Assembly (NCBI GenBank): GCA_021798985.1
Contig: JAJZBI010000011.1
Span: 23,775 to 87,774, forward strand
DNA length: 64,000 bases
Origin: Actinomycetes bacterium
GTDB taxonomy: Bacteria > Actinomycetota > Acidimicrobiia > Acidimicrobiales > Bog-793
Direction: 5' to 3'
In this document: piece by piece, positions 3,459-64,000 of the stretch
Position numbering within the stretch: position 1 is the stretch's first letter
Layout of the letters: each line of letters begins with the position of its first letter
Translations under genes and position numbers: made by a program
The notes under the pieces: generated by a model
Told to the model about the DNA's origin: nothing
Database searches by the model: none
What the model saw: only the letters and a program-made list of their open reading frames with translations

Positions 3459-4411
3459 CACATGACGTCGACGGCGGCGGGGCGCGCACCGCCGTGCTGT
3501 GCGGCGGGGTCGGCGCGGCGCGCCTGTTGGCCGGGCTCGTCGCCGTGGTCCCCGCGGCATCGGTGACGGCGATCGTCAACGTCGGCGACGACACCGAGAT
3601 GCACGGCCTGCACATCAGCCCGGATCTCGACACGATCACCTACACCTTGGGGGGCGGCTCGGACACCGAGCGCGGTTGGGGGCTGGCCGGTGAGACCTGG
3701 GCGGCCATGGACCAGCTCGACTTCTACGGCGGTGCCGCCTGGTTCCGCCTCGGCGACCGCGACCTCGGCACCCACCTGTACCGCACGGGGCGTCTCAAGC
3801 AGGGCGCCAGCCTCTCGGCGGTGACGGCCGAGATCACCCAAGCCTGGGGGATCGGGATGACCCTCTTGCCCGTGAGCGACGACCCGGTGCGCACGCGCCT
3901 TGAGCTCGAAGGCGGCGAGGAGGTCGACTTCCAGGAGTACTTCGTCCGCCTGCGCCACTCCGTAGCGGTGCGCGCCGTGCACTTCGTCGGCGCCGAGCAG
4001 GCCAAGGCGGCGCCCGGCGTGCTCGAGGCCCTCGAGGCGGCCGAGACGATCGTGATCGCGCCCTCCAACCCGATCGTCTCGATCGGCCCGGTGCTGGCGG
4101 TGCCCGGCATCACCGAGCTGCTCGCCCGCCGGCGTCGTGACGTCGTGGCGGTCTCGCCGCTCGTGGGGGGCCGGGCGCTCAAGGGTCCGGCGGACCGCCT
4201 CCTCGTCGAGCTCGGCGGGGACGCCTCAGCCGTCGGGGTCGCCGAGGTGCTGACGGGCGTGGCCGGCACCCTCGTCATCGACGTGATCGACGCCGGCCTG
4301 GCCGGATCGGTGGAACAGGCGGGCATGGCGTGCCGGGTCGTCGAGACGGTGATGTCCTCGCCGGCGGCCAGCGCCGCGTTGGCGGCTGCGGTCCTCGCCG
4401 CCCGTCCATGA
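3455..4411 (+). CDS. cofD: 2-phospho-L-lactate transferase (F420 biosynthesis, CofD/FbiA)
   Basis: ATGA overlap with the upstream gene. CofD-type sequence (LCGGVGAARLL, VNVGDD, IAPSNPIVSIGPVL), 318 aa. Confidence 0.9.
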   Translation: MTHDVDGGGARTAVLCGGVGAARLLAGLVAVVPAASVTAIVNVGDDTEMHGLHISPDLDTITYTLGGGSDTERGWGLAGETWAAMDQLDFYGGAAWFRLGDRDLGTHLYRTGRLKQGASLSAVTAEITQAWGIGMTLLPVSDDPVRTRLELEGGEEVDFQEYFVRLRHSVAVRAVHFVGAEQAKAAPGVLEALEAAETIVIAPSNPIVSIGPVLAVPGITELLARRRRDVVAVSPLVGGRALKGPADRLLVELGGDASAVGVAEVLTGVAGTLVIDVIDAGLAGSVEQAGMACRVVETVMSSPAASAALAAAVLAARP

Positions 4412-5139
4412 GTCCGATCTCGCCGGCTCCCGAGCTTGCCGCCGAGGGCCTCAGCGTCCTTCCGGTCCGCGGCCTGCCCGAGGTCCACCCCGGCGACGAC
4501 CTCGCCGGGCTGATCGCCGCGTGCGCGCCACTGCGCGACGGCGACGTCGTCGTCGTCACCCAGAAGGTCGTCTCCAAGGCCGAGGGGCGCATCGTCGCGC
4601 TCGATGCCGCCGACGCCGAAGCGAAGCGCCGCCTGGCCGAGTCCGAGGCGGTGCGCGTGCTGCGCCGGCGCGGCGACCTCGTCGTCACCGAGACCGCGCA
4701 TGGCTTCGTCTGCGCCAACTCCGGGGTCGATTTGTCCAACGTCGAGGCGGGGACCGCCGTGCTGCTGCCCGTCGACCCGGACCGCTCGGCGCGGCGGATC
4801 CGCGACGCCCTCGTGTTTCGCCTGAAGGTTCGCGTCGGCGTGATCGTCTCGGACACCTTCGGCCGGGCGTGGCGGCGCGGCCTGACCGACGTGGCGATCG
4901 GCTGCGCTGGCATCGCCGCCATCTTGGACCTGCGGGGGCGCGCGGATGCCACCGGGCGCGAGCTGCAGGCGACGGAGGTGTGCCTCGCGGACGAGATCGC
5001 CGGCGCCGCCGACCTCGTGATGGCCAAGGCGTCCGGGGTGCCCGTCGCGATCGTGCGCGGCCTCGACGCGTCCGCCTTTCGGGAGTCCTCGGTCGCCGAG
5101 GAGATCGTGCGGCCGCCGGCCGAGGACCTGTTCCGGTGA
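4408..5139 (+). CDS. cofE: coenzyme F420:L-glutamate ligase, single-domain CofE type
   Basis: ATG 4408 lies in an ATGA overlap. VVVVTQKVVSKAEGR, NSGVDLSN and SDTFGRAWR motifs. 243 aa, with no C-terminal nitroreductase-like FbiB domain. Confidence 0.85.
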   Translation: MSPISPAPELAAEGLSVLPVRGLPEVHPGDDLAGLIAACAPLRDGDVVVVTQKVVSKAEGRIVALDAADAEAKRRLAESEAVRVLRRRGDLVVTETAHGFVCANSGVDLSNVEAGTAVLLPVDPDRSARRIRDALVFRLKVRVGVIVSDTFGRAWRRGLTDVAIGCAGIAAILDLRGRADATGRELQATEVCLADEIAGAADLVMAKASGVPVAIVRGLDASAFRESSVAEEIVRPPAEDLFR

Positions 5140-6236
5140 GCGACGCCGTCGAGGGCGGCGTCACCTTGGTGGTCGAGCAGCTGCGCCGGGAGGTCCCCGG
5201 TGGCGTCGGCACCTACGTGCGCGGCCTTCTGGCGGGCCTCGAGGCGCTCGGGAGCACCGCCCCGCCGCGGCGCCTGTTCGCCAGCCGGCCGACGCGGCGC
5301 CCGGACCCGCTGCGCCGGCTCGGCCTGCCCCTCGAGCCGGCCCACCTGCCCGCCCCGGCGGCGCTGGCGGCCTGGCGCCTCGGCCTCGATGGGGTGCGGG
5401 GCCCGGGCGCGCTCACCCACGCGCTGTCCTTTGCGATCCCGCCGAGCGCGGCGCCGCTCGTCGTCACGGTGCACGACCTTGCCTGGAGGGCGCTGCCTGA
5501 CGCCTTCCCGCCGCGAGGCCGGCGCTTCCACGAGGCGGCACTGCGCACCGCGCTGCGCCGCGCGGCGCGCCTGGTCGTCCCCTCGCCCGAGGTCGCCGGC
5601 GCCCTCGTCGCCGCCGGCGCGGACGCCGGGCGCGTGGCGGTCATCGCCGAGGGCGCCGACCACCTCCCCGAGCCCGACCTCGACGGCGCCCGAGCCTTGC
5701 TCGCGCGCCTTGGGGTGGACGGCCCGTTCTACCTGAGCGTCGGCACGCTCGAGCCGCGAAAGAACCTCGCCCGCCTCCTGGCCGCGTATCGCGAGCTGCG
5801 GCGCCAAACGAGGATGCCCTGGCCGCTCGTGGTGATCGGGCCGAAGGGCTGGGGAGAGGGGCTCGGGCCGCTCCCCGAGGGCGCCGTGCTCGGCGGCCGC
5901 TGCAGCGACGGCGTGCTGGCGGGCTGCTACGCGATGGCGTCGTGCTTCGTCTACGTCCCCCTGCTCGAAGGGTTCGGGCTGCCGGTGCTCGAGGCGATGC
6001 GCGCCGGGACCGCTGTGGTGGCCAGCGCAGTGCCGAGCGCCGGGCAGGCGGCACGCGTCGTCGATGCCCGCAGCGTCGCCGCGATCGCCGAGGCGCTTGG
6101 CGAGGTGGCCGCTGATCCGACGCTTCGCGGCGAGCTCGAGCGGGCGGGACGCGCCCACGCCGAGCCGCTGACCTGGCGGGCGTGCGCCGCTGCGCACGTG
6201 GCCGTGTGGGCCGAGGTCGCGGGGGGCGGGCGATGA
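5136..6236 (+). CDS. glycosyltransferase family 4 (GT-B)
   Basis: GTG 5136 lies in a GTGA overlap. EGFGLPVLEAMRAGTAVV GT4 signature. Confidence 0.85.
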   Translation: MSDAVEGGVTLVVEQLRREVPGGVGTYVRGLLAGLEALGSTAPPRRLFASRPTRRPDPLRRLGLPLEPAHLPAPAALAAWRLGLDGVRGPGALTHALSFAIPPSAAPLVVTVHDLAWRALPDAFPPRGRRFHEAALRTALRRAARLVVPSPEVAGALVAAGADAGRVAVIAEGADHLPEPDLDGARALLARLGVDGPFYLSVGTLEPRKNLARLLAAYRELRRQTRMPWPLVVIGPKGWGEGLGPLPEGAVLGGRCSDGVLAGCYAMASCFVYVPLLEGFGLPVLEAMRAGTAVVASAVPSAGQAARVVDARSVAAIAEALGEVAADPTLRGELERAGRAHAEPLTWRACAAAHVAVWAEVAGGGR

Positions 6237-7381
6237 GCGCGGGGTTGCGCGTCGCCCTCGACGTCTCGGCGGTGCCGGCCGAGCCGGTGGGCGCCGGGCG
6301 CTACACGATCAACCTCGCCCGGGCGCTCTCGGCCTGCGCCGCCAACGGGGCGGGGCTCGACCTCGAGCTGCTCGCCCGTCGCGACGACGGGGCGCGCTGG
6401 GGTGAGATCGCGCCGGCGGCGAGCATTCGGCCGGTCGCCCCGAGCGGAGTGGGCCCGCGCCTCGCCTGGGGGGAGTGGGGCCTCGCCGGCGCGCTGCGCC
6501 GGGCCGGTGGCGGCCCGGCCGTGCTGCACGGGCCCCATTACACGATGCCGGCGCGCTCGCCCGTCCCGGTCGTCGTGACGGTGCACGACCTCACCTTCTT
6601 TGACCATCCCGAGTGGCACGAGCGCTCCAAGGTCCTCGTCTTCCGCCGGGCGCTGCGCCGGGCCGCGGCCCGGGCCGATCTCGTGGTCTGCGTCTCGGGC
6701 CCCACCGCGGAGCGCTTCGTCGAGCTCTGCCGGCCGAGCGCGCCGGTGCGCGTCATCCCCCACGGGGTCGACCACGACCGCTTCTCGCCGAGCGAGCCGG
6801 TGGCGGGCGCGGATCTCGCCTGGGGTCGCGAGCTCGGCGTGCCCGAGCGCTACGTCCTACACCTCGGGACGATCGAGCCGCGCAAGAACCTCATCGGCGT
6901 CCTGGCCGCCTTCGAGCGACTGGCGGTCGCGGACGCCGACCTCGAGCTCGTGCTCGTCGGCCGGGAGGCGTGGGGGAGCGCGGCGCTCGACGAGGCGCTC
7001 GGCGCGAGCCCGATGGCCGGGCGCGTCCACCGGCTCGGCTACGTGCGCGACGAGGCGCTGCCGGCGCTCTTGCGCCGCGCCGCGGTGGTCGTCTACCCGG
7101 CCTTCGAGGAGGGCTTCGGGCTTCCCGCCCTCGAGGCGCTCGCCTGCGGCGCGCCGCTTGTGACGAGCGAGGGCAGCGTGATGGCGAAGAATGCCGCCGG
7201 GGCGGCACTCAGTGTGCCCCCCCGAGACGTCCAGGCGCTCACCGAGGCGATCGCCGCCGCCCTGGCGGGCGGAGCAGACCTCGAGCGCCGGCGCCGGCTT
7301 GGCGTCGAGGTCGCCGCCCGCTACAGCTGGCAGGCGAGCGCCGAGGCGCACCTGGCGGCCTACCGCGACGCGACGCTTTAG
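6233..7381 (+). CDS. glycosyltransferase family 4 (GT-B)
   Basis: ATG 6233 lies in an ATGA overlap. EEGFGLPALEALACGAPLV GT4 signature. Confidence 0.85.
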   Translation: MSAGLRVALDVSAVPAEPVGAGRYTINLARALSACAANGAGLDLELLARRDDGARWGEIAPAASIRPVAPSGVGPRLAWGEWGLAGALRRAGGGPAVLHGPHYTMPARSPVPVVVTVHDLTFFDHPEWHERSKVLVFRRALRRAAARADLVVCVSGPTAERFVELCRPSAPVRVIPHGVDHDRFSPSEPVAGADLAWGRELGVPERYVLHLGTIEPRKNLIGVLAAFERLAVADADLELVLVGREAWGSAALDEALGASPMAGRVHRLGYVRDEALPALLRRAAVVVYPAFEEGFGLPALEALACGAPLVTSEGSVMAKNAAGAALSVPPRDVQALTEAIAAALAGGADLERRRRLGVEVAARYSWQASAEAHLAAYRDATL

Positions 7382-23204: not shown

Positions 23205-24776
23205 ATGGGCAGCCTGGCGGCTCTTCCCGCGCCCAAGGTGCGCGATCGCGGCGTCATCTTGGCGGTGCTTTGCCTGAGCTTGCTCATCGTCAGCCTCGAC
23301 AACACCGTGTTGAACGTGGCGATGCCCGACATCGTGCGGGAGCTGAACGCCACCTCGGGCCAGCTGCAATGGGTGATCGACGCGTACGCCGTGGTCTTTG
23401 CGGGGCTGCTGCTCGTCATCGGCAGCATCGGCGACCGCGTGGGGCGCAAGTGGACCTACCTCGGCGGACTGACCGTCTTCGGGGCCGGCTCGGCGATCAG
23501 CGCCTTTGCCGGATCGCCGAACCACCTCATCGCCGCGCGCGTCGTGATGGGCGTGGGCGCCGCGGCGATCATGCCTTCGACGCTGTCGATCCTGACCAAC
23601 GTCTTCCCCGAGCCCGCCGCGCGCGCCCGGGCGATCGGGCTGTGGTCGGGAACGACGGGGCTTGGCGTCGCGATCGGCCCGGTCATCGGCGGCTGGCTGC
23701 TCGCCCACTACTGGTGGGGATCGGTCTTTTTGATCAACGTGCCGATCGCCGCGCTCGCCGTCGTGGCGACCCTGCTGATCGTCCCGAACTCGGCGAGCGG
23801 CAACGCGCGCCGCGCCGATCCGATCGGCGCGGCCCTCTCGATCATCGGCATGGGGGCCCTGTTGTGGGGGATCATCGAGGCCCCGACGCGAGGCTGGGAC
23901 CACCCGGTCGTGCTCGGCGCCCTCGTCGGCGCCGTCGTGATCCTGGCGGTGTTCGCGCGCTTTGAGCAACGCAGCTCCTCGCCCATGCTCCAGGTGGCCT
24001 TCTTCGCCTCCCGGCGCTTCTCGGTGGCGATGGCCGGCCTCGCCTTCGTCATCTTCTCCTTGATGGGCGGATTGTTCGTGCTCACGCAGTACCTGCAGTT
24101 CGCCCTCGGCTACAGCGCGCTGCAGGCGGGAATGCGGATCTCGCCGATCGCGGCGGTGATCTTGGTCGTGGCGCCGGCGTCGATGTTGGCGGTGCAGCGC
24201 ATCGGGACCAAGCCGGTCGTCGCTGCCGGGATCGCGCTGATCGCCGGCGGGCTCTTCGCGCTCTCGCGCGTGACGGTCGCCGGCGGCTACGGCGACGCCC
24301 TGCCGGCGTTCTTCTGCCTCGGCATCGGCGCGGGCCTTTCCTTTGCCCCCTGCACCGACGCGGTCATGGGCTCCTTGCCCCTTGAGGATGCCGGCGTGGG
24401 ATCGGCGACCAACGGCGCCGCCTTGCAGACCGGGGGCGCGATCGGCGTGGCGGTCTTCGGCAGCCTGCTCAACACCCGATATCAGGACCAGCTGAAGCCG
24501 CTGCTCGCCCACCACCCGATGCCGGCGAGCGTCTTGCACCTCATCATGGGATCCCTCGGCGGGGCGCTCGAGGTCGCCAAGCACGCCGGGCCGCTCGGCG
24601 CCGCGCTGGCGGGCGCGGCGCGCCAGGCCTTCGTACACGGACTGGACCTCGCCGTCTTGGTCGGCGGGATCGTCGCGCTCGCTGCCGCGGTGCTCGTCCT
24701 CGCCCTGTTGCCGAACCGCCCCGAGCGCCGAGGCCTCGATCGCGCCGCCGAGGGCGAGGCGGCAGACGCCGCCTGA
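23205..24776 (+). CDS. MFS transporter, DHA2 (EmrB/QacA, 14-TMS) type
   Basis: About 14 hydrophobic helices and the GSIGDRVGRKW MFS motif. Confidence 0.85.
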   Translation: MGSLAALPAPKVRDRGVILAVLCLSLLIVSLDNTVLNVAMPDIVRELNATSGQLQWVIDAYAVVFAGLLLVIGSIGDRVGRKWTYLGGLTVFGAGSAISAFAGSPNHLIAARVVMGVGAAAIMPSTLSILTNVFPEPAARARAIGLWSGTTGLGVAIGPVIGGWLLAHYWWGSVFLINVPIAALAVVATLLIVPNSASGNARRADPIGAALSIIGMGALLWGIIEAPTRGWDHPVVLGALVGAVVILAVFARFEQRSSSPMLQVAFFASRRFSVAMAGLAFVIFSLMGGLFVLTQYLQFALGYSALQAGMRISPIAAVILVVAPASMLAVQRIGTKPVVAAGIALIAGGLFALSRVTVAGGYGDALPAFFCLGIGAGLSFAPCTDAVMGSLPLEDAGVGSATNGAALQTGGAIGVAVFGSLLNTRYQDQLKPLLAHHPMPASVLHLIMGSLGGALEVAKHAGPLGAALAGAARQAFVHGLDLAVLVGGIVALAAAVLVLALLPNRPERRGLDRAAEGEAADAA

Positions 24777-57985: not shown

Positions 57986-58549
57986 TCAGTTGATGGTGAG
58001 TCGCGAGGTGGCGGGAAGGCCCCGCTGGGTGAAGACGCCGCTGAGCGAGGGGACGGCCTTGGCGGTCCCGGTGGCCGCGACGGGCTTGGTGACGACGGTC
58101 ACGTGGAAGTCCACGACGCCGAGCGGGTAGGACGCGGTCGGGATCCACGCCGCGGTCCAGTACGAGGTCGTGCCATGGGTCCCGTACGCGAGCGGGATCT
58201 TGCCAACCCCGGGCACGTACACCCATGCCGCCTTGACGTTGTCACCCGTGAGCGCCATGCCGCGGTCACGGACGTTGACGCCCCACATCCGGAAGACCAC
58301 CTGCTGGGTCTGCTGGAAGAGGTTGGTCATCCCGCACGGCGCACTGGGCTTGGGTGAGCCTGAGCTTCCCTGCACGGTGTCGACGTACAAGAAGAGCGCG
58401 TGCTGGCTCGCGCCCTGCACCGGGGGCGCCGGCGTCGTGGTCGTGGTGGTCGAGGCCGCGCTGGCGCTCGGTGCGCTCGTCGCGAGCGCCCCGAGCCAGG
58501 CCGGTGCGGCCAGCGCGAGCGCGACCGCTCCTCCAACCAGTTTTCTCAT
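57986..58549 (-). CDS. exported hypothetical protein with Thr-rich linker
   Basis: Sec signal MRKLVGGAVALALAAPAWLGALATSAPSASA, then a STTTTTTPAPP linker and a ~140-aa beta-rich domain. Confidence 0.7.
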   Translation of the reverse strand: MRKLVGGAVALALAAPAWLGALATSAPSASAASTTTTTTPAPPVQGASQHALFLYVDTVQGSSGSPKPSAPCGMTNLFQQTQQVVFRMWGVNVRDRGMALTGDNVKAAWVYVPGVGKIPLAYGTHGTTSYWTAAWIPTASYPLGVVDFHVTVVTKPVAATGTAKAVPSLSGVFTQRGLPATSRLTIN

Positions 58550-58589
58550 CTGTATTCTCCCTTCCTTGGTCTGCGGGTGAGGAGCGAGC

Positions 58590-59168
58590 TCAGCGGACCG
58601 ACAGGCGGCCGTGCAGGGTCACGGTGAAGCTGCCGGACTGGGATCCCGAGGTGCCGCCGAGCTTCAAGGTGCCGCTGAAGGCGAGAGATCCGCTCGCCCC
58701 CTTGTCCTTGCCGGTGCCACCGGTCGCCTTGGCGATCCCCTTGAAGGTCACCGTGACCGGGCCGCTCTCGCCGCTCGAGCACCCCTTGGCGGTCGAGTCC
58801 GCGACCGTGAAGTTGATGGTCCCACCGGTGCCCACGATGGCGCCCTTGCCGGTGAAGGGGTCGCACAGCGCTGACGCGCTTGCGCTGCCCGATCCTTTGA
58901 TCGTGCTCCTGCCCACGAGGGCGGCCGTGCCGGTGCCCGAGCCTTGGACCGAAGAGATCGTGGCGGTGCCGTTGTTGATCAACAGCGCCGCGGTTCCCTT
59001 GTAGTGGCCGACGAAAGCAACGCTGCGGTGCCGGACTGCGGCGATTGCGTTGGTTTGCAGCGCCATGGTGGCGGTGGCGGCGAGCGGGATCAGCGCCAGG
59101 TAGTGGGCGCGGCGCCGAGATTGGCGAAGCGACTGGTCCGTCGGCGGCCGTTGGACGATCGGGGTCAT
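58590..59168 (-). CDS. Tat-signal Gly/Ser/Thr-rich exported hypothetical protein
   Basis: ATG 59168. Twin-arginine motif SRRRAHYLAL followed by a hydrophobic region. The mature part is G/S/T-rich beta repeats. Confidence 0.65.
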   Translation of the reverse strand: MTPIVQRPPTDQSLRQSRRRAHYLALIPLAATATMALQTNAIAAVRHRSVAFVGHYKGTAALLINNGTATISSVQGSGTGTAALVGRSTIKGSGSASASALCDPFTGKGAIVGTGGTINFTVADSTAKGCSSGESGPVTVTFKGIAKATGGTGKDKGASGSLAFSGTLKLGGTSGSQSGSFTVTLHGRLSVR

Positions 59169-59464
59169 GGGGGCTCTCCCTTCGGCGGGATCGCGTGGTC
59201 TTGGCATGCGAACCCGCACCACTCGTAGTGCGACCCTTGCAGATCAGCATCCGCCACCGCGAGCGAACTAGGGACTAAGGGCACAAGGGGAGTGCAGGAA
59301 GTCCTGGTGGTGAGGTACATTGGACTGACGCTTTCGAGCAGGGGGATTTCGCGTTCGGACAAGGGGTCTTTCGCCCCCTGACACCTCGTGGTGGCGTGGC
59401 TGATGCTTGGACCAAAGCGATGCCGGGCCGCGCGATGGCGTGACCTCGGGCACGGGAGGAGCAG

Positions 59465-59701
59465 ATGCGGCCCGACGAGTCGTGGATGGACGAGGCGGCG
59501 TGTCGCGGACGGTCGCCCGAGCTGTTCTACGCGAACGACGAGGTGCTGCTGCGTGCCGCAGTGCAGGTCTGCTCGAGCTGCCCGGTCCGCCGCCAATGCC
59601 TCGAGTACGCGCTCAGCTACGGCATCGAGGACGGCGTGTGGGGTGGCCGTACCGAGCGCGAGCGGCGGCGGATGCTGCGATCGATGCGCCGGAGCGCATA
59701 G
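59465..59701 (+). CDS. WhiB-family (Wbl) Fe-S transcription factor
   Basis: Four Cys (C...CSSCPVRRQC), a GVWGG turn and a basic tail. GGAGGAG lies before the ATG. Confidence 0.92.
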   Translation: MRPDESWMDEAACRGRSPELFYANDEVLLRAAVQVCSSCPVRRQCLEYALSYGIEDGVWGGRTERERRRMLRSMRRSA

Positions 59702-59880: not shown

Positions 59881-60936
59881 TCAGCTGGGTGCTGGGGCAC
59901 CTTTGCCAGCAGCCAGGAGGCTCTCGTCAGCGACCAAGACGGCGGCTCCAGCGAAGCGGCCCTCGGAAAGGTCCCGCAGCGCGTCGGTTGCCTCAGCGAG
60001 ACGGTAGGCATGCGTGGTCGCCCGCAGTCCCAAGCGCGCGGCGAGCTCCAAGAAGACGAGGCCGTCCTGTCGGGTGTTGGCCGTCACGCTCCGGACGCTC
60101 TTTTCGTAAAAGAGGTGCTCGGCGTAATTGAGCGGCGGGACGTCGCTCAGGTGGATGCCGGCGATGCAGAGCGTGCCGCCGCGCCCGAGCGCGCTGAGCG
60201 CGACCGGGACCAGCGTGCCGACCGGCGCGAAGAGGATCGCCGCATCGAGCGGCTCGGGTGCCATCGCGTCCGCCGCGCCGGCGCTCGCCGCGCCGAGCTC
60301 GAGGGCGAGCGCTCGGGCGGCCGCGCCGCGGGTGAGGACATGGACGCGGGCGCCCTGCGCGATCGCCAGCTGGGCGCACAGGTGTGCCGACGCGCCGAAG
60401 CCGTAGATGCCGAGGCGACCCCCTGGGGGGAGTTCGGCGCGCAGCAGCGCGCGATAGCCGATGATCCCCGCACACAGCAGAGGTGCCGCCGCCACGGGGC
60501 TGAGCCCGGCGGGGATGGGGTAGGCGAACCGCTCGTCGACGAGGGTGAACTCGCTGTAGCCGCCGTCGCGGTCCCATCCCGTGAAGCTGGGCGCGACGCA
60601 AAGGTTCTCCCGGCCGGCCACGCAGAAGTGGCAGCGACCACAGGTTGCCCCGAGCCACGCGACGCCGACGCGCTGGCCGAGGGAGAAGCGCCCGGCGCCT
60701 GCTCCGAGCGCGTCCACGACGCCGACGACCTCGTGGCCCGGCACGACCCGGCTCCGGCGCGGCTCGAGGTCCCCCTCGGCGAGGTGGAGGTCGGTCCGAC
60801 ACACCCCGCAGGCCTCGACCTGCACGCGGACCTCGCCCGGCCCCGGCTCGGGCAGGGGGCGTTCCAGCTCGACGAGCGGGTGCGTGGCGATGGGGCCGGG
60901 GACGTCGACCGCGTAGGCGCGCATCGACTCAGCCAC
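59881..60936 (-). CDS. zinc-dependent alcohol dehydrogenase family protein
   Basis: GHEVVG, the structural-Zn loop [15 protein letters not shown] and a GFGASAH Rossmann motif. Alternative ATG start at 60924. Confidence 0.88.
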
Positions 60937-61153: not shown

Positions 61154-61603
61154 TCACCCAGCACGTCCGTCCCGCACGATGACCACCGAGCAGCCCGCCA
61201 GGCGGGCGCAGTTCTCTCCACAGTGTCCGAGGAGGAGACCTGCGAAGCCACCGTAGCCGCGATCGCCCACCACAAGCATCCGAGCACCTCGCGACGCCTC
61301 GACCAGCACCGGCGTCGAGTGGCCGCGGATCACCTTGCGCTCGATCGGGGGGACGGGCGCCGACTCCTCGTCGCAGACCTTCTGGATGGTGCGCTCAAGG
61401 GCAAGCCGCGCCTCTTCCTCCAGGCTGTGCGCGCCCGGCGGCACGAAGCCGAAGCCGAGGGTGTTCTCCCAGGCGATCACCGCCTGGACCGGCGCCCCGG
61501 TGCGGCGCGCGTAGTCGATGCCCCAGCGCAGCGCCTCGGCGCTCTCTCGAGAGCCATCGATGCCGACCACGACCGGCCGGTGATCGTCCCGCTCGTTCAT
61601 CAC
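61154..61603 (-). CDS. universal stress protein (UspA family)
   Basis: VVVGIDGS...MLVVGDRGYGGFAGLLLG...C.VVIV pattern. Confidence 0.88.
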   Translation of the reverse strand: MMNERDDHRPVVVGIDGSRESAEALRWGIDYARRTGAPVQAVIAWENTLGFGFVPPGAHSLEEEARLALERTIQKVCDEESAPVPPIERKVIRGHSTPVLVEASRGARMLVVGDRGYGGFAGLLLGHCGENCARLAGCSVVIVRDGRAG

Positions 61604-61652: not shown

Positions 61653-63296
61653 TCAGTTCGCCTCGGGAACGAGGTCGATGGCCCCGCACGGGCACTCCTC
61701 GACGCAGATCCCGCAGCCCTTGCAGTAGTCGTAGTTGAAGGCGTAGCGGCGGCCGCCTGCGGCCTGCGTCTCGCGATCGGTCAGCTTGACCACGGCGTTG
61801 TCCGGGCAGACGCCGAAGCAGTTGTCGCACTCAAAGCAGTTGCCGCACGACAGGCAGCGGCGCGCCTCGAACAGGGCGGTGTCCTCATTGAGGCCGCCCA
61901 CGACCTCAGCGAAGGTGTCGACGCGGCGCGCGGCGGCGAGCTCGGGGCGGCGGCTCCTCGGCGCGTCGTCGTAGTACCAGGTGTTCAGGCGCTCGAGGCT
62001 CGCGAGGCCATGGCGCTCGGGTGCGAGGCGCGTCCCTCCCGCCAGGTAGGCGTCGATCGCCCGGGCGGCGCGCTTCGCGTGGCCGATGGCCACGGTGGCG
62101 GTGCGCGCGGAGGGCACGGCGTCGCCGCCGGCGAATATCCCCACCTCGCCGGTCATCATCGACGGGCCGACCTCGACCACGCCGTGGCGAACGGCGATGT
62201 GCTCGGCGCCCTCGACGACGGACAGGTCGCTGTCCTGGCCGAGCGCCAGCACCAGCGCGTCCGCTGGGAGCTGCTCGAACTCACCGGTCGGCACCACCTT
62301 GCCGTCTTCGAGGACGACCTTTTCGATGACGAGGTGATCGCCCTCGAACGAGTCGACGGTCGAGAGCCAGCGCGTGGTGATCCCCTCGGTCAAGGCCTGA
62401 TCGAGCTCCTCGCGCTCGGCCGGCATCTCCTTGTCGGTGCGGCGGTAGACGATGACCGTCTCGGTCGCCCCGAGGCGCCGCGCCGTCCGGGCGGCGTCCA
62501 TCGCCGTATTGCCGCCGCCATAGACGGCGACGCGGCGACCGAGCAGCACGGGGCGGTCCTCCTCGACGCTGCGGAGCAGCGACAGGGCATCCACGATCCG
62601 GGCGGAGTCGCCCGCCGGGATCTCGATCCTCCGGCCGAGCTGGGCCCCGACGGCGAGGTAGGCGGCGTCGTAGCCTCCCGCCTCCCGTTCGGCGACGACG
62701 TCTTCGACACGGTGGTTCGGGATCCACTGCACCCCGAGGGCGAAGATCCGCTCGATCTCGGCGTCGAGGACGGCGCGGGGGAGGCGGTAGGCGGGGATGC
62801 CGTAGCGCATCATCCCGCCGGGCTTGGCTGCGCTGTCGACTAGATCGACGCGGTGGCCGAGGCGCCGGAGGTGGTAGGAGGCTGCCAGCCCAGACGGCCC
62901 GGCGCCGACGACAAGGACGCGGCGCCCGGTCTCGCGGGTTTGCGCGTCGAAGCCAAAACCCTTTTCGATGGCCAGATCGCCGAGGAAGCGCTCGACGGCG
63001 TTGATGCCGACCGCCTCGTCGACCTGGGCGCGGTTGCAGGCCGTCTCGCAGGGGTGGTAGCAGATCCGGCCCATGATCGCCGGCAGCGGGTTCTCCTCCA
63101 CCAGCTGGCGCCAGGCGGCTTCGTAGTCTCCGGACTCGGCGTGATAGAGCCAGCGCTGGATGTTCTCGCCGGCGGGGCAGGCATCGTTGCACGGCGGCAG
63201 GCGGTCCACGTAGACGGGGCGCTCGACGCGCCAGGTGCCCGTGCGGTTGGCGTGGCTCGTGCCGACCTCGAGCGTGATGGCAAAGGGGTGCTCCAT
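61653..63296 (-). CDS. chimeric OFOR delta subunit: PorD-type N-terminus and 2x[4Fe-4S] C-terminus interrupted by a GltD/NfnB-like FAD-NAD(P)H module
   Basis: NRTGTWRVERPVY; CNDACPAGENIQRW and GRICYHPCETACNR; VLVVGAGPSGLAAS and VAVYGGGNTAMDAA Rossmann folds; CLSCGNCFECDNCFGVCP and FNYDYCKGCGICVEECP. The start overlaps the porB stop by 1 nt. Confidence 0.8.
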   Translation of the reverse strand: MEHPFAITLEVGTSHANRTGTWRVERPVYVDRLPPCNDACPAGENIQRWLYHAESGDYEAAWRQLVEENPLPAIMGRICYHPCETACNRAQVDEAVGINAVERFLGDLAIEKGFGFDAQTRETGRRVLVVGAGPSGLAASYHLRRLGHRVDLVDSAAKPGGMMRYGIPAYRLPRAVLDAEIERIFALGVQWIPNHRVEDVVAEREAGGYDAAYLAVGAQLGRRIEIPAGDSARIVDALSLLRSVEEDRPVLLGRRVAVYGGGNTAMDAARTARRLGATETVIVYRRTDKEMPAEREELDQALTEGITTRWLSTVDSFEGDHLVIEKVVLEDGKVVPTGEFEQLPADALVLALGQDSDLSVVEGAEHIAVRHGVVEVGPSMMTGEVGIFAGGDAVPSARTATVAIGHAKRAARAIDAYLAGGTRLAPERHGLASLERLNTWYYDDAPRSRRPELAAARRVDTFAEVVGGLNEDTALFEARRCLSCGNCFECDNCFGVCPDNAVVKLTDRETQAAGGRRYAFNYDYCKGCGICVEECPCGAIDLVPEAN

Positions 63297-64000
63297 CAGT
63301 CCTCCACGACCTCGGGCGCCTCGGCGCTGGTCGGCTCCAGCAGGCCGTAGCGGGCAATGTTGGCTTCGGCTAGCGCCTGCAGTTGGTCGATCACGTCGGA
63401 GTGGTCACCTTTGAACAGATGCGCGTAGCGGCGCTGGGCCTGTAGGTACTCGACGACTGGCGCCTTGTGGCGGATCTTTGCAACCGAGACCACCTCACCG
63501 TGTTCGGCCTCAAAGACCGGGAAGATCCCCGTCTCCTTGGCGAGCCGGGCGAGGCGGATGGTGTCTTTGGACGCAGCGCCCCAACCGAGCGGGCAGGGGA
63601 CGAGCACGTGCAGGTAGCGGGCGCCGCGATGGGCCATCGCCCGGATCGTCTTGGCCTCGAGGTCGTGCAGGTCGGCGACCGTGGCCGTGGCGACGTAGGA
63701 GATCTCGTGCGCCATCGCGATGCGCGGGAGGTCCTTTCCTTGGCCAAAGGCATTACCCGGCGCCGGGCCCACCGCCTCGGTCGTCGCGGTGCGCGCCGCG
63801 GGTGGGGTTGCGCCCGAGCGCTGTACCCCGGTGTTCATGTAGGCCTCGTTGTCGTAGCAGACGTACAAGACGTCGTCGTTGCGCTCGAACATTCCCGACA
63901 AGGTGCCGAACCCGATGTCGACCGTGCCGCCGTCGCCACCCTGGGCCACGACGCGCACGTCGTCGCGCCCCTTGGCCCGCATCGCCGCGGCGACACCGGT
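63296..64000 (-). CDS. porB: 2-oxoacid:ferredoxin oxidoreductase beta (TPP-binding) subunit, 3' part (gene continues beyond window)
   Basis: The frame is open to the window end. GGDGGTVDIGF TPP motif and CYDNEAYMNTG, a PorB-type C-terminus. Confidence 0.85.
   Translation of the reverse strand, partial: TGVAAAMRAKGRDDVRVVAQGGDGGTVDIGFGTLSGMFERNDDVLYVCYDNEAYMNTGVQRSGATPPAARTATTEAVGPAPGNAFGQGKDLPRIAMAHEISYVATATVADLHDLEAKTIRAMAHRGARYLHVLVPCPLGWGAASKDTIRLARLAKETGIFPVFEAEHGEVVSVAKIRHKAPVVEYLQAQRRYAHLFKGDHSDVIDQLQALAEANIARYGLLEPTSAEAPEVVED

Follow-up and report, generated by a model that had tools for sequence, protein, structure and literature searches.

A putative 2-oxoacid:NADP+ oxidoreductase subunit from an Acidimicrobiales genome, in which a PorD-type delta protein is split by a circularly permuted GltD/NfnB-type module

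Introduction

The 2-oxoacid:ferredoxin oxidoreductases (OFORs) are textbook ferredoxin enzymes of anaerobes. At the end of the 64,000-nucleotide (nt) stretch of Acidimicrobiales DNA analysed here (the window; positions 23,775 to 87,774 of contig JAJZBI010000011.1), the gene of a thiamine pyrophosphate (TPP)-binding OFOR beta subunit is followed by a gene for a 547-amino-acid (aa) product, described in a first-pass annotation as an OFOR delta subunit interrupted by a flavoprotein. The locus raises the question of whether this product is indeed a delta subunit and, if so, where the electrons of such an OFOR would go. On the evidence below, it is probably the fourth subunit (hereafter delta*) of a POR/VOR-type 2-oxoacid:NADP+ oxidoreductase, with a wire of iron-sulphur (Fe-S) clusters to flavin adenine dinucleotide (FAD) built in.

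The split PorD-type delta subunit

Both ends of delta* have been compared with models of PorD-type delta subunits. Residues 5-31 by themselves match PorD_Arch positions 5-31 (E=0.0018), and in the phmmer alignment with the solved PorD chain 9bt4_G, PFAITLEVGTSHANRTGTWRVERPVYV falls on PIGGTCEPGSTLANKTGGWRNFRPVYI. At the opposite end, residues 481-545 of the unspliced protein score 66.2 bits on PorD_Arch and 64.5 bits on TIGR02179 PorD_KorD (curated cut-off 60.05 bits), the latter match covering model positions 25-77 only. The C-terminal fragment by itself gives 57.8 bits for PorD_KorD, against about 29 bits for the next non-PorD ferredoxin family. Its cluster motifs are C487xxC490xxC493xxxC497P and C525KGC528xxC531xxxC535P.

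In a splice test, the middle of the protein was deleted in silico and residues 1-33 were joined to residues 487-547, giving a chain of 94 aa. This spliced form matches TIGR02179 in a single stretch over model positions 5-77 of 78, with 89.2 bits, and reaches 87.4 bits on PorD_Arch. The ferredoxin part (487-547) without the arm scores 58.7 bits (model positions 27-77) and 54.7 bits, respectively, while three shuffled arms and one reversed arm, each joined to the ferredoxin part, give 62.8-65.3 bits on TIGR02179 and 53.5-58.9 bits on PorD_Arch. The true arm gives about 24-26 bits more on TIGR02179 than the shuffled controls, and contributes about 25-30 bits for which composition does not account. 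In the boundary search, residues 1-33 joined to 477-547 scored 73.4 bits; because the exact splice outscored this imprecise one, the seam is located at 33/487. Deletion of residues 34-486 leaves RPVYVDRL/CFECDNCFGVCP, and the arm of the aligned PorD chain likewise ends four residues before a cysteine. The PorD-like character of both termini, already proposed in the first-pass annotation, is upheld by these comparisons, and the ground for refutation given there, that both ends are normal GltD segments unrelated to PorD, does not hold.

Conservation follows the same lines. Residues T19, G20, W22 and P27 of the arm are invariant across 73 representatives at 33-46% identity, and so, at this alignment level, are the eight cysteines of the ferredoxin domain together with K526 and G527. 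Little or no variation is seen in the PorD hallmark YDYCKGCGIC and in the TGxWR...RPVY arm. Two features set delta* apart from a classic delta subunit: (i) the cut-off is passed over the whole model only by the spliced form, 453 residues standing between the arm and the first cluster motif in the linear chain, and (ii) the product has 547 aa instead of the roughly 80-110 aa of a free-standing protein.

The inserted, circularly permuted flavin module

The full-length product scores 720.3 bits on NF009410/PRK12771, a family named "NAD(P)-binding protein" with a cut-off of 516 bits; residues 6-545 correspond to model positions 20-565 of 566. Pfam analysis revealed (i) Fer4_20 at residues 34-113, (ii) Pyr_redox_2 at 126-407, with Pyr_redox and NAD_binding_8 matches in the same dinucleotide-binding part, and (iii) a 2x[4Fe-4S] domain at 486-539. 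The FAD motif GAGPSG occupies residues 131-136 and the NAD(P)H motif GGGNTA residues 260-265, followed by Y284-R285-R286.

The GltD Fe-S region behind the arm lacks its own first CxxC, which is supplied by residues 444-486; the stretch 444-491 matches the first 50 or so positions of GltD models. When residues 426-486 were placed ahead of 34-425 and the module was rescored, the match to Fer4_20 rose from 77.7 bits (model positions 30-112) to 96.9 bits (2-112 of 113), that to TIGR01316 gltA from 264.9 bits (37-449) to 282.9 bits (4-449 of 449) and that to TIGR01318 gltD from 191.6 bits (49-465) to 215.5 bits (5-465 of 467). Against canonical NfnB (4ylf_B) and GltD (6s6s_G), the re-permuted module gives a single alignment that crosses the seam unbroken, with ...RCLSCGN/PPCNDACP... 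set against ...RCsqCgvPfCqvhCP.... Against StnC (8oh5_C) and the A chains of NfnABC (9bov_A and 9n5u_A) the alignment falls into two stretches, which indicates that these proteins have the permuted order too, as does the native window module. Judged by these alignments, residues 34-486 are a GltD/NfnB-type module in circularly permuted order, and C481xxC484 and C36xxxC40P are the halves of one GltD cluster motif, divided over two seams. Since this motif is divided over both seams, the ends of the insert must meet in space, and the PorD arm and PorD ferredoxin domain are predicted to be left spatially contiguous by the insert.

Down to 31-46% identity, fifteen cysteines do not vary (36, 40, 79, 83, 87, 481, 484, 487, 490, 493, 497, 525, 528, 531 and 535); the first five of these, in the GltD Fe-S region, are constant in three alignments. 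They would divide into eight ligands for two PorD clusters and seven for two GltD clusters; a fourth ligand other than cysteine is known among relatives. Residues R285 and R286 are invariant in two alignments, and Y284-R285-R286, which follows the second Rossmann strand, resembles the HRR/YRR motif of NADPH-specific relatives. This invariant triplet suggests, by analogy, a preference for NADP over NAD.

The complete GltD/NfnB/SudA unit seen in the first-pass annotation thus stands as regards the GltD/NfnB domains and both Rossmann motifs. The canonical two-cluster order of GltD, NfnB and the N-terminal part of DPD (CxxCx4Cx3CP ... Cx3Cx3C) is absent. The proposed domain boundary also needs a shift of six residues: in "CLSCGNCFEC...", C481 and C484 are part of the GltD module and not of the delta ferredoxin, so that the motif quoted as "CLSCGNCFECDNCFGVCP" is a composite of a GltD CxxC abutting a PorD CxxCxxCxxxCP.

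Structure prediction

An AlphaFold2 model based on 48 homologues of at least 69% identity was unusable, with a mean predicted local distance difference test (pLDDT) of 54.6 and both termini below 50. With 91 sequences at 59-78% identity the mean pLDDT was 86.6 and the predicted template modelling score 0.85; the arm reached 68-91 and the C-terminal domain about 76-86. Structural comparison used the DSSP string of the model and Foldseek matches. The model has a strand at residues 25-29 (ERPVY) and ferredoxin-like elements at 492-544. Among PDB entries, Foldseek ranked StnC 8oh5_C, NfnABC 9bov_A and 9n5u_A, NfnB 5jfc_L, GltD 6s6t and DPD, the template modelling (TM) score normalised to the target being 0.77 for NfnB 5jfc_L and 0.76 for GltD 6s6t_E.

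The flavin modules of StnC (8oh5), NfnABC-A (9bov/9n5u), NfnB (4ylf/5jfc) and GltD (6s6s) share the fold of the window module, with query-normalised TM scores of 0.65-0.76. Their partners are [2Fe-2S] and formate-dehydrogenase-like domains fused to them, or else NfnA or GltB; in contrast to the window module, none of them is embedded in an OFOR delta subunit.

Operon organization and conservation

The minus-strand reading frame of the first-pass annotation has been confirmed, as has its one-base overlap with the beta gene: in the junction letters GACTGATGGAG, the TGA (63298-63296) and the ATG (63296-63294) have base 63296 in common. An identical protein is encoded on DAHVUF010000089.1 (L001), a 102-kb contig of the Actinomycetota metagenome-assembled genome GCA_027357925.1. 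The gene order on L001 is as follows: acyl-CoA synthetase/GNAT (930 aa), PPOX-like protein (152 aa), gamma (196 aa), alpha (422 aa), beta (342 aa), delta* and universal stress protein (USP). The first six genes overlap successively by 1-17 nt, and no separate delta gene is called among the gamma, alpha, beta and delta* genes. Gamma passes TIGR02175, and alpha, beta and gamma find their best models in PorA, PorB and PorC, respectively. The PorB model gives 227 bits on the partial beta product of the window and 314.7 bits on the full 342-aa product of L001, which has an N-terminal CQGCG motif.

A species scan, with one genome per species, gave at least 588 loci, and the best 80 of these were examined. 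Their hosts are Acidimicrobiales, Streptomyces, Plantactinospora, Alpha- and Betaproteobacteria and Acidobacteria. In all 80 loci porB lies directly upstream of the delta* gene and the arm PFAITLxVGxSxANxTGxWRxxRPVY is present, and the order gamma-alpha-beta-delta* is found in every locus with enough upstream DNA. The two genes overlap by 1 or 4 nt at 53 of 79 porB/delta* junctions, and at 74 of 79 they either overlap or lie no more than 24 nt apart. A further PorD- or ferredoxin-like sequence was looked for throughout each locus and was missing from 78 of the 80. A homologue in Sutterella megalosphaeroides stands in the same operon arrangement.

Beyond gamma, alpha and beta, the most widely shared neighbour, malic enzyme, reaches 15 of 81 loci (annotation covered clusters present in at least 9 loci); next come a regulator binding cyclic nucleotides (cNMP; 13) and GAPDH (12). 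On the source contig and in the survey of locus neighbours, no GltB, NfnA or dihydroorotate dehydrogenase-like partner was found in the operon or conserved nearby.

Distribution of the family and natural fusions

A HMMER search over 1.84 billion cluster representatives (50% identity, E<=1e-30) gave 4009 clusters. Hosts of the architecture include Streptomyces, Acidimicrobiales, Rhizobiales, Burkholderiales, Rhodocyclaceae and the gut genus Sutterella. Motifs were counted in the best 150 of these clusters, where 125 of the 150 representatives have at least 500 aa. The motif [ST]GxW[RK] stands about 16 residues before PCxxxCP in 83 of the 125, and the composite seam motif occurs in 110.

Natural fusions of the module to OFOR domains have been found as well (Table 1). 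Most of the forms of about 750 aa carry the arm motif after an N-terminal extension, which is POR-gamma in the four that were scanned. The fusions of about 1100 aa and 991 aa would be nearly single-chain NAD(P)-linked OFORs. The existence of such fusions is independent evidence that the module works inside OFOR complexes.

The databases name the family differently: "2-oxoacid:acceptor oxidoreductase delta subunit" at JGI, "NAD(P)-binding protein" at NCBI and, for some UniRef entries, "glutamate synthase". It is a widespread and catalogued family whose function is without a name.

Table 1. Features of the delta* locus in window coordinates, and natural fusions of the module with their lengths
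Feature	Position or length	Strand	Basis or representatives
delta* gene, 547 aa	61653..63296	-	ORF (open reading frame) call; NF009410 full length
TPP-binding beta subunit gene (porB type), 3' part, 234 codons, running past the window end	63296..64000	-	Pfam TPP_enzyme_C; NCBIfam PorB
TGATG stop/start overlap, beta gene/delta* gene	63294..63298	-	Direct reading of letters
PorD N-terminal arm, residues 1-33 (PFAITLEVGTSHANRTGTWRVERPVYVDRL)	63198..63296	-	PorD_Arch match; splice test
GltD Fe-S region, residues 34-113: C36-x3-C40-P (motif 1, second half), C79/C83/C87 (motif 2)	62958..63197	-	Fer4_20 30-112/113
FAD and NAD(P)H binding domains, residues 126-407	62076..62921	-	Pyr_redox_2, Pyr_redox, NAD_binding_8, Foldseek
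Displaced GltD N-terminal segment, residues 444-486, ending RRC481LSC484GN (motif 1, first half)	61839..61967	-	GltD model 5-51
PorD-type 2x[4Fe-4S] ferredoxin domain, residues 487-547	61656..61838	-	TIGR02179, Fer4_7
Fusion POR-gamma + module	~750 aa		P0159, P0166, P0168, P0188
Fusion POR_N + PFOR_II + TPP_C + module	~1100 aa		P0226, P0242
Fusion TPP_C + module	991 aa		P0250

Relatives and known systems

Members of the wider family stand beside other types of OFOR. On plasmid 2 of Aromatoleum aromaticum EbN1, a 595-aa "FAD-dependent oxidoreductase" is encoded directly upstream of a KorA/KorB OFOR, which consists of a 622-aa fused alpha and a 351-aa beta subunit. This flavoprotein is 31-34% identical to the window protein and has the permuted order, the C-terminal ferredoxin domain and all 15 cysteines aligned; it is without the N-terminal arm, has no PorD match with the hidden Markov models and scores 389 bits on PRK12771, below the cut-off of 516. 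On the Phenylobacterium zucineum plasmid NC_011143.1, a 54%-identical PRK12771 member lies beside a single-chain nifJ; the TGxWR of its arm is lost and its PorD score is about 40 bits. An Aeromonas homologue (53% identical), known here from the protein without its neighbours, has a similarly degenerate arm. The TGxWR arm is thus kept where the partner OFOR has no delta subunit, degenerate in Phenylobacterium and Aeromonas, and absent from the KorAB-linked Aromatoleum homologue. In the examples compared, PorD character is strongest exactly where the partner is without its own delta.

The Phenylobacterium homologue (L084, 4875-12227) stands between a Zn-alcohol dehydrogenase gene and nifJ, after which a dihydroorotate-dehydrogenase-like gene follows, an arrangement that recalls PreT/PreA (DPD) as much as an OFOR.

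An NADP+-specific 2-oxoglutarate oxidoreductase (KGOR) was reportedly purified from Azoarcus evansii by Ebenau-Jehle, Boll and Fuchs in 2003 (J Bacteriol 185:6119). It is reported to have subunits of 63, 62 and 37 kDa with FAD, TPP and Fe-S, and to have been proposed as a source of both NADPH and reduced ferredoxin. The Aromatoleum cluster, with predicted masses of 67.8, 65.0 and 37.5 kDa, is what we take to be its counterpart. In the passage of PMC10134865 that deals with the A. evansii NADP+ 2-oxoglutarate oxidoreductase, its flavoprotein subunit is called a GltD homologue. KGOR shares with the window system an OFOR with a GltD-like Fe-S flavoprotein which, in the Aromatoleum gene, has the permuted order and a C-terminal 2x[4Fe-4S] domain; it differs in its KorAB partner and in the lack of a PorD arm and of any PorD match. 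No two-subunit KorAB lies next to delta*, whose partner is of the POR type with gamma, alpha and beta. That the A. evansii enzyme belongs to the same family with a fused gamma-alpha subunit was considered and rejected: in L039 and L049, both proteobacterial, gamma and alpha are encoded by two ORFs, and the homologue in Aromatoleum, which stands beside KorAB, is a paralogue of 31% identity.

PadEFGHI oxidises an aromatic substrate with NAD+ as acceptor, and its delta subunit (PadF) and epsilon flavoprotein (PadH) are two distinct chains. It is likewise a multi-subunit OFOR of the POR/VOR type, and the window alpha, beta, gamma and spliced delta match the PadG, PadI, PadE and PadF models, all with scores far below the equivalog cut-offs. 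It is cited in a passage of PMC5109826 as the phenylglyoxylate:NAD+ oxidoreductase of Azoarcus evansii (Hirsch 1998).

The four-subunit pyruvate/2-ketoisovalerate:ferredoxin oxidoreductases of archaea and bacteria (PorGDAB/VorGDAB) have gamma, alpha and beta of the same type as the window system, and their PorD is matched end to end by the spliced delta. Their canonical delta, in contrast, is a free protein of 80-105 aa whose gene stands between those of gamma and alpha, and these enzymes reduce free ferredoxin, whereas delta* carries a 453-aa insert and is encoded last. Another OFOR with a covalently attached flavoprotein and NADP+ as acceptor is the pyruvate:NADP+ oxidoreductase (PNO) of Euglena gracilis and Cryptosporidium parvum. 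PNO joins a single-chain pyruvate:ferredoxin oxidoreductase (PFOR) to a cytochrome-P450-reductase-type FMN/FAD domain, and Pfam finds no such domain in the window protein.

The statement in the first-pass annotation that such a subunit has no biochemical description was too strong, given the A. evansii NADP+ enzyme with its GltD-like subunit, the existence of PRK12771 and the delta naming at JGI. The design is a variant of a known principle, by which OFORs are made NAD(P)+-dependent by a GltD-like flavoprotein, and not a categorically new system.

Proposed function and alternative explanations

In the proposed mechanism, a 2-oxoacid (most likely pyruvate) would undergo oxidative decarboxylation to the acyl-CoA on the TPP of alpha and beta. 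The electrons would pass one by one from the [4Fe-4S] cluster of beta through two PorD-type clusters and two GltD-type clusters to FAD, which would reduce NADP+ with no need of free ferredoxin. The 2-oxoacid:NADP+ reaction would be strongly exergonic and, for this reason, effectively one-way. That electrons pass to NAD(P)+ seems reasonable from architecture and precedent, and we infer a stable assembly, this direction of electron flow, NADP rather than NAD as acceptor, and the substrate. Ferredoxin-independent wiring, which the first-pass annotation had set against the use of free ferredoxin, is favoured by the architecture; the wording "rather than free ferredoxin" is perhaps too exclusive, because the A. 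evansii enzyme was reportedly proposed to serve both carriers. Substrate assignment from NCBIfam equivalogs failed because alpha and beta fall below the cut-offs. Pyruvate is the likeliest substrate, with rather better than even confidence, because of the best matches to PorA, PorB and PorC and the occasional malic-enzyme and GAPDH neighbours.

Several points weigh against the reading of delta* as an NADP+-linked delta subunit. The scores of alpha (444.8 bits) and beta (314.7 bits) lie below the NCBIfam equivalog cut-offs of 550 and 405, respectively. The contact between C36/C40 and C481/C484, like the sheet contact between arm and ferredoxin domain, is predicted by the logic of the sequence. 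The simple linear wire is an assumption, for electron bifurcation is what the nearest relatives of solved structure do with their flavin module. In the literature, which was covered in part, no study of the activity, cofactors, complex or structure of gamma/alpha/beta/delta* was found. Finally, one PRK12771 member, that of Phenylobacterium, adjoins a complete single-chain PFOR with its own ferredoxin domain, from which it follows that not every PRK12771 protein can be a delta replacement.

This last member gives some weight to an alternative in which the protein is a loosely coupled ferredoxin:NADP+ reductase, similar to NfnB or SudA and acting on ferredoxin or another acceptor, which is co-expressed with an OFOR and recycles free ferredoxin without any delta role. 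The KorAB-linked relative without a PorD arm and the A. evansii enzyme, reportedly proposed for both NADP+ and ferredoxin, point the same way. Such an arrangement is nevertheless unlikely for the window operon: four-subunit POR/VOR enzymes need a delta, yet 78 of the 80 loci hold no other candidate, the arm is held constant in precisely those operons that have no delta and degenerates outside them, stop/start overlaps with porB are common, and the module is found covalently fused to gamma and to alpha/beta domains. It is scarcely credible that the termini are ordinary GltD-family parts, or a generic 2x[4Fe-4S] ferredoxin, and resemble PorD by chance. YgfK, StnC and the Aromatoleum protein do have a C-terminal Fe-S domain behind a permuted GltD module, but the Aromatoleum relative is without any PorD match, while here the termini, once spliced, exceed the PorD/KorD cut-off with one unbroken match, shuffled arms bring no such gain, and the hallmark and arm motifs hardly vary. 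The central claim of the first-pass annotation, an OFOR delta subunit split by a GltD-type module, is sustained by the splice controls, the constant porB neighbour, the want of a second delta and the fusions.

Two further alternatives concern what the FAD would do. In a bifurcating or confurcating OFOR, the NfnB-type FAD would split or merge electrons between the TPP cluster chain and a high-potential partner, and the best neighbours in sequence and structure (StnC 8oh5_C, NfnABC 9bov_A/9n5u_A, NfnB 5jfc_L/4ylf_B) are indeed bifurcating. We consider this distinctly improbable, for of the Nfn/Stn design only the NfnB-type FAD module is present: the second branch (the [2Fe-2S]/FAD protein NfnA, or NuoE/F-like StnAB) is missing, no such or other second-branch partner is conserved among the annotated neighbours in the 81 loci, and the 547 aa hold no extra domain. 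Moreover, this fold serves as a simple wire in GltD and DPD, which do not bifurcate, and the A. evansii precedent reportedly reduces NADP+ without a second carrier. It would be a long shot that the embedded FAD is a true bifurcating or confurcating site, with a direct wire to the TPP active site, which couples NADPH to the -500 mV acyl-CoA/2-oxoacid couple via a high-potential partner encoded elsewhere, for example a quinone- or NAD+-linked protein. If true, the enzyme would be a ferredoxin-free reversible pyruvate synthase/oxidase in Streptomyces, Acidimicrobiales, Burkholderiales and Sutterella, and the hosts gaining it would be aerobic or facultative soil and gut bacteria. Without bifurcation, the complex might be thought to run in reverse as an NADPH-driven 2-oxoacid synthase, carboxylating acyl-CoA for anabolism, given that OFORs are reversible in principle and that the GAPDH or malic enzyme at some loci is also anabolic or anaplerotic. 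This is very unlikely: no CO2-fixation context is conserved and the reaction is thermodynamically unfavourable, as NADPH at about -320 mV would need bifurcation, or a very high NADPH/NADP+ ratio, to drive acetyl-CoA carboxylation at about -500 mV.

Neighbouring genes

On L001, two further genes stand ahead of the OFOR genes on the same strand (3887-7134), upstream of the position at which the window ends, with stop/start overlaps. The 930-aa product combines an ADP-forming acyl-CoA synthetase (best match TIGR02717, acetate--CoA ligase alpha) with a GNAT domain that matches Pat-type acetyltransferases, and the 152-aa product ahead of gamma is a PPOX/F420-like split-barrel protein. A co-transcribed ADP-forming acyl-CoA synthetase would fit, in the window lineage, a route from 2-oxoacid through acyl-CoA to acid and ATP. 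The synthetase fusion recurs near the operon in a few loci only (L003, L007, L020, L036 and L056).

Downstream in the window, 50 nt behind the delta* gene, lies the USP gene (61154-61603, minus strand), whose homologues occur within a few kb of the operon in the Streptomyces loci L041, L064, L066 and L073. It is followed by a zinc-type alcohol dehydrogenase (ADH) gene (59881-60936, minus strand) and a WhiB-family regulator gene (59465-59701, plus strand). The order ADH-USP-WhiB is also found in contig L002, and an ADH flanks the Phenylobacterium homologue too. Two adjacent ORFs of 187 and 210 aa (57986-59222, minus strand) have signal-peptide-like N-termini and are rich in Thr, Gly and Ser; on the source contig (L001 14129-15311) they have no recorded Pfam match.

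Cytochrome bd oxidase genes adjoin the operon in L001 (1165-3632) and in the Sutterella locus L086 (1-266), the latter also having a nap nitrate reductase and a NarX/L-like pair nearby. The cytochrome bd and nap neighbours hint that the enzyme is used when conditions are micro-oxic or respiratory. In 9 of 81 loci, for example L012 (12477-13313), a NiFe-hydrogenase small-subunit-like gene (Oxidored_q6) is found within 7 kb of the operon, and 10 of the 81 have a gene for a cytochrome b subunit of succinate dehydrogenase/fumarate reductase.

Significance

If the reading proposed here holds, the delta* architecture offers a clean natural case of a circularly permuted domain inserted in a host protein, with an Fe-S cluster formed at the seam. 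It may also serve as a ready system in which to learn why some NfnB-type flavins bifurcate and others do not, and it is a good target for biochemistry and cryo-electron microscopy.

With an NADP+ reductase built into its delta subunit, a very widespread version of the OFOR appears to bypass free ferredoxin, while its genes are currently labelled "NAD(P)-binding protein" or "glutamate synthase small subunit". If this is true, such a self-contained NADPH-producing OFOR would be of use in metabolic engineering, and pyruvate and other 2-oxoacid oxidation as well as NADPH supply would have to be remodelled in many soil, wastewater and gut genomes.

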